DNA of 64,000 nucleotides, from the NCBI RefSeq assembly GCF_058153355.1, contig NZ_CM177019.1; one strand, 5' to 3'. Positions 17,007-17,191 of this stretch are shown in pieces. Every line of letters begins with the position of its first letter. Position 1 is the stretch's first letter. Made by a program: the position numbers and the translations under genes. The notes beneath the pieces are model-generated. The model was not told the origin of the DNA and made no database searches. It saw only the letters and a program-made list of their open reading frames with translations.

Positions 17007-17111
17007 ATCTTTGCTCCACTACAGGGTTATCCTGGAGCAGGTTGTACATAACCTCATGGGCAAAGAATATCAAAAATCGCTCATATCGATCGGGACAAAT
17101 ATTTAACAAAC

Positions 17112-17159
17112 TCAGCCCTGACATTGTGCAGCTTTTTCGCTGCGTAGTGTCAGGGCTGA
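17112..17159 (-). terminator. Putative malZ terminator (long stem-loop)
   Basis: 12-bp perfect inverted repeat TCAGCCCTGACA...TGTCAGGGCTGA enclosing a second short stem (GCAGC TTTTT CGCTGC), 3' of the malZ stop. Confidence 0.5.
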
Positions 17160-17191
17160 TGACTAACGACGTAACAAATAAAACAGATGCT

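Follow-up and report, generated by a model that had tools for sequence, protein, structure and literature searches.

A low-GC accessory segment between acpH and malZ

Does the hairpin that lies between malZ and the accessory gene beside it belong to malZ, or did it arrive together with that gene? An earlier note on the stretch of DNA analyzed here (64,000 nucleotides in total, referred to below as the window) had taken the former view, proposing that a gene for a 481-aa protein was inserted precisely between a malZ terminator hairpin and the acpH stop codon. In the window, acpH (14959-15540, plus strand; ACP phosphodiesterase), identified from the list of open reading frames (ORFs), the RefSeq annotation of homologous loci and 98% amino acid identity to K-12 AcpH, is intact and convergent with the accessory ORF (15561-17006, minus strand), which encodes the 481-aa protein, is annotated as “hypothetical protein” in RefSeq and is called the orphan gene below. 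The malZ gene (17192-19009, minus strand; maltodextrin glucosidase) is also intact, and the 185-bp interval at 17007-17191, between the start of the orphan ORF and the malZ stop codon, contains the hairpin.

In E. coli K-12 MG1655, the annotation places acpH and malZ a mere 4 bp from each other (AACG between the stop codons; the junction reads ...GCG TTA TAA AACG TTA GTTCATCC...), and the orphan ORF and the hairpin are both absent. Alignment sets these 4 bp against the 1651-bp intergenic stretch at 15541-17191, a net difference of +1647 bp, and the malZ stop codon (17192-17194) directly abuts this stretch, the composition profile of which gives a GC content of 32-40% versus 50-58% in the flanks. 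The interval at 17007-17191 is the upstream flank of this ~1.65-kb low-GC accessory segment (15541-17191), which probably starts at 15535. The earlier proposal therefore survives only in part: the gene is indeed missing from K-12 and both flanking genes are undisrupted, but the hairpin lies inside the segment rather than at its border, and there was no pre-existing terminator for an insertion to spare, since empty sites have no hairpin. Where a terminator is carried along with the cargo, what looks like a sharp insertion beside it can be misleading.

Our explanation of the whole, to which we assign a probability of roughly 0.6, is that a 1.65-kb segment carrying the hairpin replaces the 4-bp acpH-malZ spacer, that the hairpin acts as a malZ terminator, that the orphan gene has its own promoter, and that the segment has spread by recombination. 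The locus is an ordinary, small, single-gene, low-GC accessory islet that brings its own boundary hairpin.

The hairpin and the orphan gene occur together

A BLAST search of 14900-17400 against 5426 complete E. coli genomes found the flanks in 5424 genomes and the whole query in 1126. When the 185-bp interval was searched separately against the same 5426 genomes by sensitive blastn, it was present in exactly 1126, in each of them as a single chromosomal copy in the acpH-malZ gap. Hairpin and orphan gene co-occurred in all 1126 of the 1126 carriers, and none of the 4300 genomes without the ORF had the interval. Because the interval matches the same number of genomes as the ORF, and because empty sites have no hairpin, the hairpin is part of the accessory segment, which about one fifth of E. 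coli genomes carry (about 79% are without the orphan gene). Carriers include O157:H7, O55:H7, O145, SMS-3-5 and Shigella dysenteriae; K-12, O104:H4 and CFT073 are non-carriers.

Both junctions are identical in the seven haplotypes (...GCG CTC TGA AACTTCAAG... on the left and ...AACAGATGCT TTA... on the right), and because carriers share the same junctions we infer a single origin of the segment. Around the insert we found no target-site duplication, only an imperfect 6-nt T(G/A)AAAC microhomology that is not present at both edges, and the segment has no terminal direct or inverted repeats. It contains no transposase, integrase or other mobility gene; the product of its only ORF matched nothing in Pfam, NCBIfam or PHROGs. 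Searches of phage and plasmid collections returned no phage match and no true plasmid copy. The sole “plasmid” matches to the islet were PLSDB entries NZ_CP134663.1 and NZ_CP141089.1, which, at 4.9 Mb each, are evidently E. coli chromosomes mislabelled as plasmids.

We rejected a transposable element (IS, transposon or MITE), given the lack of a target-site duplication, terminal inverted repeats and a mobility gene and the occupation of one site per genome in 1126 genomes. An integron cassette, with the palindrome as its attC site, was rejected by inspection, as the palindrome lies 5' rather than 3' of the ORF and the segment has no integrase gene.

Divergence of the segment and its flanks

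Among six occupied haplotypes, leaving out the mosaic allele of strain 3CM, the orphan ORF has a dS of 0.02-0.05 and a dN/dS of 0.4-1.3. In the same strains, dS is 0.10-0.27 for acpH and 0.07-0.15 for the last 168 codons of malZ, with dN/dS of 0.01-0.19. Because the dS of the insert is several-fold lower than that of acpH and the malZ 3' end, these data indicate that the insert alleles have a common ancestor several-fold younger than that of the core alleles on either side. The low dS of the insert relative to its flanks, together with the mosaic 3CM allele, also points to homologous recombination through the conserved flanks as the probable way in which the segment moved between E. coli lineages. 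The alleles of the islet differ by 3-4%, are mosaic and vary in repeat length, so it is no newcomer, yet it has spread across pre-existing backgrounds and has not been inherited since the deepest splits.

The earlier note had described an old, selectively maintained acquisition rather than a recent transposition. Its negative half stands: identical junctions, the lack of a target-site duplication, terminal inverted repeats and transposase, the single copy per genome and mosaic alleles 3-4% apart all speak against a recent transposition. “Old” gains little from an insert that is several-fold less diverged than its neighbors, and “selectively maintained” little from a dN/dS of 0.4-1.3 in a gene that most genomes are without, although its frame is open more often than neutrality predicts.

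The left edge of the segment has a further feature. The last Leu codon and stop of acpH (15535-15540, plus strand) read CTC TGA in every occupied allele, TTA or TTG followed by TAA in every empty Escherichia site, and CTT TGA in Salmonella and Citrobacter, so that occupied and empty alleles differ by three silent changes within 6 nt, directly after 27 identical nt. Because CTC TGA is closer to the Salmonella and Citrobacter ending than to that of empty sites, simple insertion into an empty E. coli site is an insufficient account. The CTC TGA ending in carriers is probably a residue of donor DNA, and the imported DNA would then start at 15535, at the probable left edge, and come from a relative with the same acpH-malZ synteny, later recombination having replaced the donor flanks up to the heterology. 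A more specific history, which we consider possible but doubtful, is that E. coli received the islet not by a de novo insertion but by introgression, through homologous recombination, from an unsampled Escherichia-like lineage that already had the orphan gene between acpH and malZ. The islet would have brought its own malZ terminator, CTC TGA would be the last donor nucleotides, and the orphan would be a fast-evolving, taxonomically restricted gene, with a dN/dS near 1, repeat lengths that vary in 4-aa steps and mosaic alleles.

Other variation was seen on this side of the locus. The acpH gene is unusually polymorphic within E. coli, with pairwise DNA identities of 93.8-97.4% and dS up to 0.27 (14959-15537 of the window compared with loci L001-L012). 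The window and E. albertii have acpH alleles that are equally far from that of K-12 (94.3% identity in each case); in its secD-tgt block, the window shows about 97% identity to typical E. coli. The queA-acpH intergenic region carries an extra 126-203 bp in some strains (L004, 268-485; L005; L006), which is absent at 14867-14958 of the window. In L004 this extra DNA contains an ERIC/IRU core (GAGTCCCCAGGAGCTTACATTAAGTAAGTGACTGGGGTGAG), and it represents a second, independent presence/absence polymorphism beside acpH.

Structure and proposed role of the hairpin

The stem-loop (17112-17159, minus strand) has perfect 12-bp outer arms, TCAGCCCTGACA and TGTCAGGGCTGA, at 17112-17123 and 17148-17159, a 4x4 internal loop, and a 5-bp inner stem, GCAGC/GCTGC, at 17128-17132 and 17139-17143 that encloses a loop of 6 nt. 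An inverted-repeat search ranked it first within 15500-17250. Folded as RNA of the malZ-sense strand, it has a predicted energy of -32.7 kcal/mol (z = -9.0), a value equaled by 0 of 200 shuffled sequences, and in a 111-nt context the energy is -35.7 kcal/mol (z = -4.3). The perfect arms and inner stem described before our analysis were thus confirmed, as was the position of the hairpin between malZ and the accessory ORF, the estimated 100 bp to the ORF start at 17006 being 105 bp (17007-17111) when measured.

As expected for an intrinsic terminator, the stem-loop is stable and GC-rich, and it starts shortly (33 nt) downstream of the malZ stop codon. Directly 3' of it on the malZ-sense strand is a U-rich tail, GUUUGUUAAAUAUUUGU (17095-17111, minus strand), which reads AAUUUGUU... 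in O157-type alleles. The tail has 5 U in its first 8 nt, an interrupted U-tract that nevertheless passes the T-count rule of our terminator scan. This simple scan did not call the hairpin; its rule describes a single stem enclosing a loop of 3-8 nt, to which the two-part stem does not conform. Because the U-rich tail follows the stem on the malZ-sense strand only, and because the hairpin corresponds in position and polarity to the malZ terminators of other genera, termination of malZ transcription is its most likely role; as a part of the accessory segment, it may plausibly insulate from, or intrinsically terminate, malZ transcripts. In the mechanism that we propose, hairpin and tail would end these transcripts 33-85 nt past the stop codon and so uncouple the orphan gene from malZ read-through. 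The orphan gene would instead be expressed from its own weak, AT-rich promoter region, with a candidate extended -10 element (TGaTATTCT at 17064-17072, minus strand) that is read from the sequence only, and from a good ribosome-binding site, the Shine-Dalgarno motif GGAG at 17014-17017 (minus strand), 7 nt upstream of the ATG at 17006-17004 and kept in 7 of 7 aligned haplotypes. A consensus scan of 17007-17111 detected no canonical -35/-10 promoter.

The closest known counterparts are intrinsic terminators such as the bidirectional one between malZ and a convergent peroxiredoxin-like gene in Salmonella, Leclercia and Citrobacter (AAAAAAGGCTCGC-loop-GCGAGCCTTTT), which is likewise a stable GC-rich stem-loop a few tens of nucleotides past the malZ stop codon with a U-rich stretch on the malZ-sense strand. 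The islet hairpin differs from it in that its stem is much longer and composite (12 bp, the internal loop and 5 bp), its U-tract is interrupted, and termination is predicted from sequence. It has no upstream A-tract and so is not expected to be bidirectional, and the two hairpins have no sequence similarity.

Both arms of the hairpin are intact in 36 of 36 sequences, which comprise seven variants, and such changes as do occur lie in the loop, at the internal mismatch or at the terminal pair. A covariation test on these 36 sequences found no compensatory changes among the seven variants, which are too few to be informative, and because there are no such changes conservation of the structure is not separable from low overall divergence. 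An Rfam search of 14800-17500 (E up to 10) gave two chance matches and none at the hairpin. Within the 64-kb window, exact matches to a hairpin arm were limited to its own two arms; one other near-match, with a single mismatch, is attributable to chance. A scan of metagenomes for the hairpin arms gave 34 matches, of which 29 were the same E. coli locus and five were unrelated contigs without a match to the ORF, malZ or acpH. We rejected these five contigs as members of a hairpin family, as they had been picked by the search pattern itself.

Could the hairpin be a passenger without present function, for example the terminator of a gene upstream in the donor or a relic of recombination, that is kept merely because the segment is young and little diverged? 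Divergence among carriers is about 3.8% in the intergenic DNA, equal to the roughly 3.5% in the ORF and thus without a sign of extra constraint; the lack of compensatory substitutions and the imperfect U-tract fit this idea, as does the fact that K-12-type strains manage without any malZ terminator. We nevertheless consider it unlikely, as both arms persist across all 36 sequences and seven variants, and a hairpin of -32 kcal/mol followed by UUUGUU in a transcribed region would be likely to affect transcription whatever its origin.

A different possibility is that the inverted repeat acts through the other strand or as DNA, either as an RNA element made by acpH read-through (a 21-bp duplex of the RNase III type, or a 3'-end stabilizer) or as an operator for a dimeric regulator of the orphan gene. 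On the plus strand, antisense to malZ, three mismatches of the internal loop become G.U pairs that close it into an uninterrupted 21-bp helix of -37.9 kcal/mol, compared with -32.7 kcal/mol on the malZ-sense strand, a difference that speaks against the terminator reading. The commonest change in the terminal pair (A to G) is paired on the plus strand only, and the repeat lies about 45-95 bp upstream of the candidate promoter region. The strand asymmetry consists of four transitions that all favor one strand, which has a chance probability of about 1 in 8 and is not significant. With no U-tract after the hairpin on the plus strand, no regulator gene in the segment and no Rfam family match, we regard a role of this kind as improbable, and termination of malZ transcripts remains the function that we favor for the hairpin.

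Empty sites and the polarity of the change

A scan of species-representative genomes for AcpH returned 80 loci, among which four Escherichia lineages other than K-12 are represented (E. albertii, Escherichia sp. MOD1-EC7003, Escherichia sp. E1V33 and strain SCPM-O-B-8794); E. fergusonii, E. marmotae, E. ruysiae and E. whittamii fall outside the returned loci. The arrangement of two stop codons 4 bp apart without a hairpin was found in K-12, OkiPb01701, CFT073 (phylogroup B2; TTA TAA GACG TTA) and all four of these lineages, and the orphan ORF is absent from E. albertii and the other three. Because the sampled non-coli Escherichia lineages and CFT073 are all empty, these data indicate that Escherichia originally had the tight 4-bp junction and that the segment was gained later.

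The junction differs more widely outside Escherichia. In Salmonella, Leclercia, some Citrobacter and Enterobacter, and others (loci L014, L016, L032, L034, L039, L042, L048, L063, L082 and L087), acpH and malZ are separated by a conserved gene for a 200-aa peroxiredoxin-like protein, and the genera that carry it have a canonical bidirectional terminator beside the malZ stop codon. In Escherichia this gene has been lost, down to a 4-bp spacer, and most other genera have no malZ within 4 kb of acpH. The E. coli insert contains no remnant of, or similarity to, the peroxiredoxin gene or its terminator. The acpH-malZ junction has been remodelled repeatedly in the family.

The opposite polarity, with occupied sites as the original state and K-12-type sites derived from them by an exact deletion that removed gene and hairpin together, would account for the acpH ending, as CTC TGA is one step from the CTT TGA of Salmonella and Citrobacter and the TTR TAA of empty sites is three steps away. 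It would also be in keeping with a 7-nt sequence, ATAAAAC, that the K-12 junction shares with the DNA close to the right junction (17180-17186), and with an earlier loss of DNA here, the peroxiredoxin gene of other genera being missing from Escherichia. This scenario is, however, difficult to reconcile with the 4-bp architecture of four non-coli Escherichia lineages and of phylogroups A, B1 and B2, the foreign base composition of the segment, the more recent coalescence of its alleles relative to the flanks, and the lack of an ORF homologue in any other genus, and we judge it highly improbable.

To the idea from which the question arose, that malZ had this hairpin as its resident terminator and the accessory gene inserted just beyond it, sparing the terminator, we give almost no credence: the hairpin does lie directly downstream of malZ in the right polarity, and other enterobacterial genera do have a terminator there, but its sequence is unrelated to theirs, every empty Escherichia site examined has 4 bp between the stop codons and no hairpin, a simple consensus scan found no terminator-like site in the K-12 junction region, and the 185-bp interval is missing from each of the 4300 genomes without the ORF.

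Our preferred reading, a segment gained together with its own hairpin, means that K-12-type E. coli lack a terminator in the 4 bp of intergenic DNA that separate the convergent genes malZ and acpH, and that the islet supplies its own boundary element. Of the features that define a horizontally acquired islet, we found presence/absence polymorphism with absence from sister species and a deviant base composition; no donor was identifiable. The segment resembles the E. coli islets known as “O-islands” or “S-loops” (O157:H7 versus K-12) in its low GC content, sharp edge at the ends of core genes, presence/absence distribution and hypothetical protein, but unlike them it is not associated with a tRNA, integrase, IS or phage, and its cargo is a complete orphan. 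Like the dispersed extragenic palindromes REP/BIME and ERIC/IRU, which have many copies per genome and a common consensus, the islet hairpin is an intergenic palindrome, and it has convergent genes around it. In contrast to them, it is present in a single copy per genome, only with the orphan gene, and has no similarity to the ERIC core. None of the findings at this locus would surprise a specialist.

The orphan gene and its protein

The orphan frame is open in 29 of 32 full-length loci. Its alleles encode 461, 469, 473, 477, 481, 485, 489 or 493 aa, and the length changes, all in frame, occur in 4-aa steps arising from a 12-bp tandem repeat (about 5.5 copies at 16103-16167, minus strand) in the K/E-rich center of the ORF. 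With 156-215 substitutions among 30 alleles, about 5-10 stop codons would be expected if changes were random. The Shine-Dalgarno motif at -7, the open frame in 29 of 32 alleles, the in-frame length changes and the shortage of stop codons relative to the random expectation argue that the ORF is real. These data also indicate that the reading frame is maintained more than neutrality predicts, with weak constraint on the protein sequence.

Comparisons of the protein with Pfam, NCBIfam, PHROGs, PADLOC and PDB profiles gave nothing above noise. A search of 5.8 billion clusters gave, among the 120 matches listed, only Escherichia and Shigella proteins, 88-100% identical and annotated as “hypothetical”, and an exhaustive phmmer search of 1.84 billion representatives returned one full-length cluster, the rest being short fragments of the same gene at 66-97% identity, with no homologue outside Escherichia/Shigella. 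An AlphaFold2 model built from a 14-sequence alignment had a mean pLDDT of 43 and a pTM of 0.34, which is too poor for a fold search. Together, the searches and the divergence data indicate that the 481-aa protein is a genuine orphan restricted to Escherichia/Shigella and fast-evolving at the protein level. We found no mention of the islet or the orphan gene in publications or supplementary tables, including the O157 (Sakai) transcriptome supplement. Under the introgression history considered above, the gene might, speculatively, function in host or phage interaction, and a secreted effector could have an N-terminus rich in Ser/Asn/Thr such as that of the orphan protein. Carried by O157:H7, O55:H7, O145 and Shigella dysenteriae as well as many other strains, the gene offers a clearly delimited, if minor, starting point for functional studies.

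Two further observations concern the coding sequence itself. Inside the 5' part of the orphan ORF, at 16861-16882, is a perfect 22-nt palindrome (TTTTCATTTCC|GGAAATGAAAA) with no spacer. The 3CM allele (L008, 962-2347) is mosaic: its N- and C-terminal parts are close to those of the O157 allele, and alignment columns 270-330 are essentially unrelated (dS above 1.4) and 20 aa shorter, which suggests a recombinational replacement of the central region.
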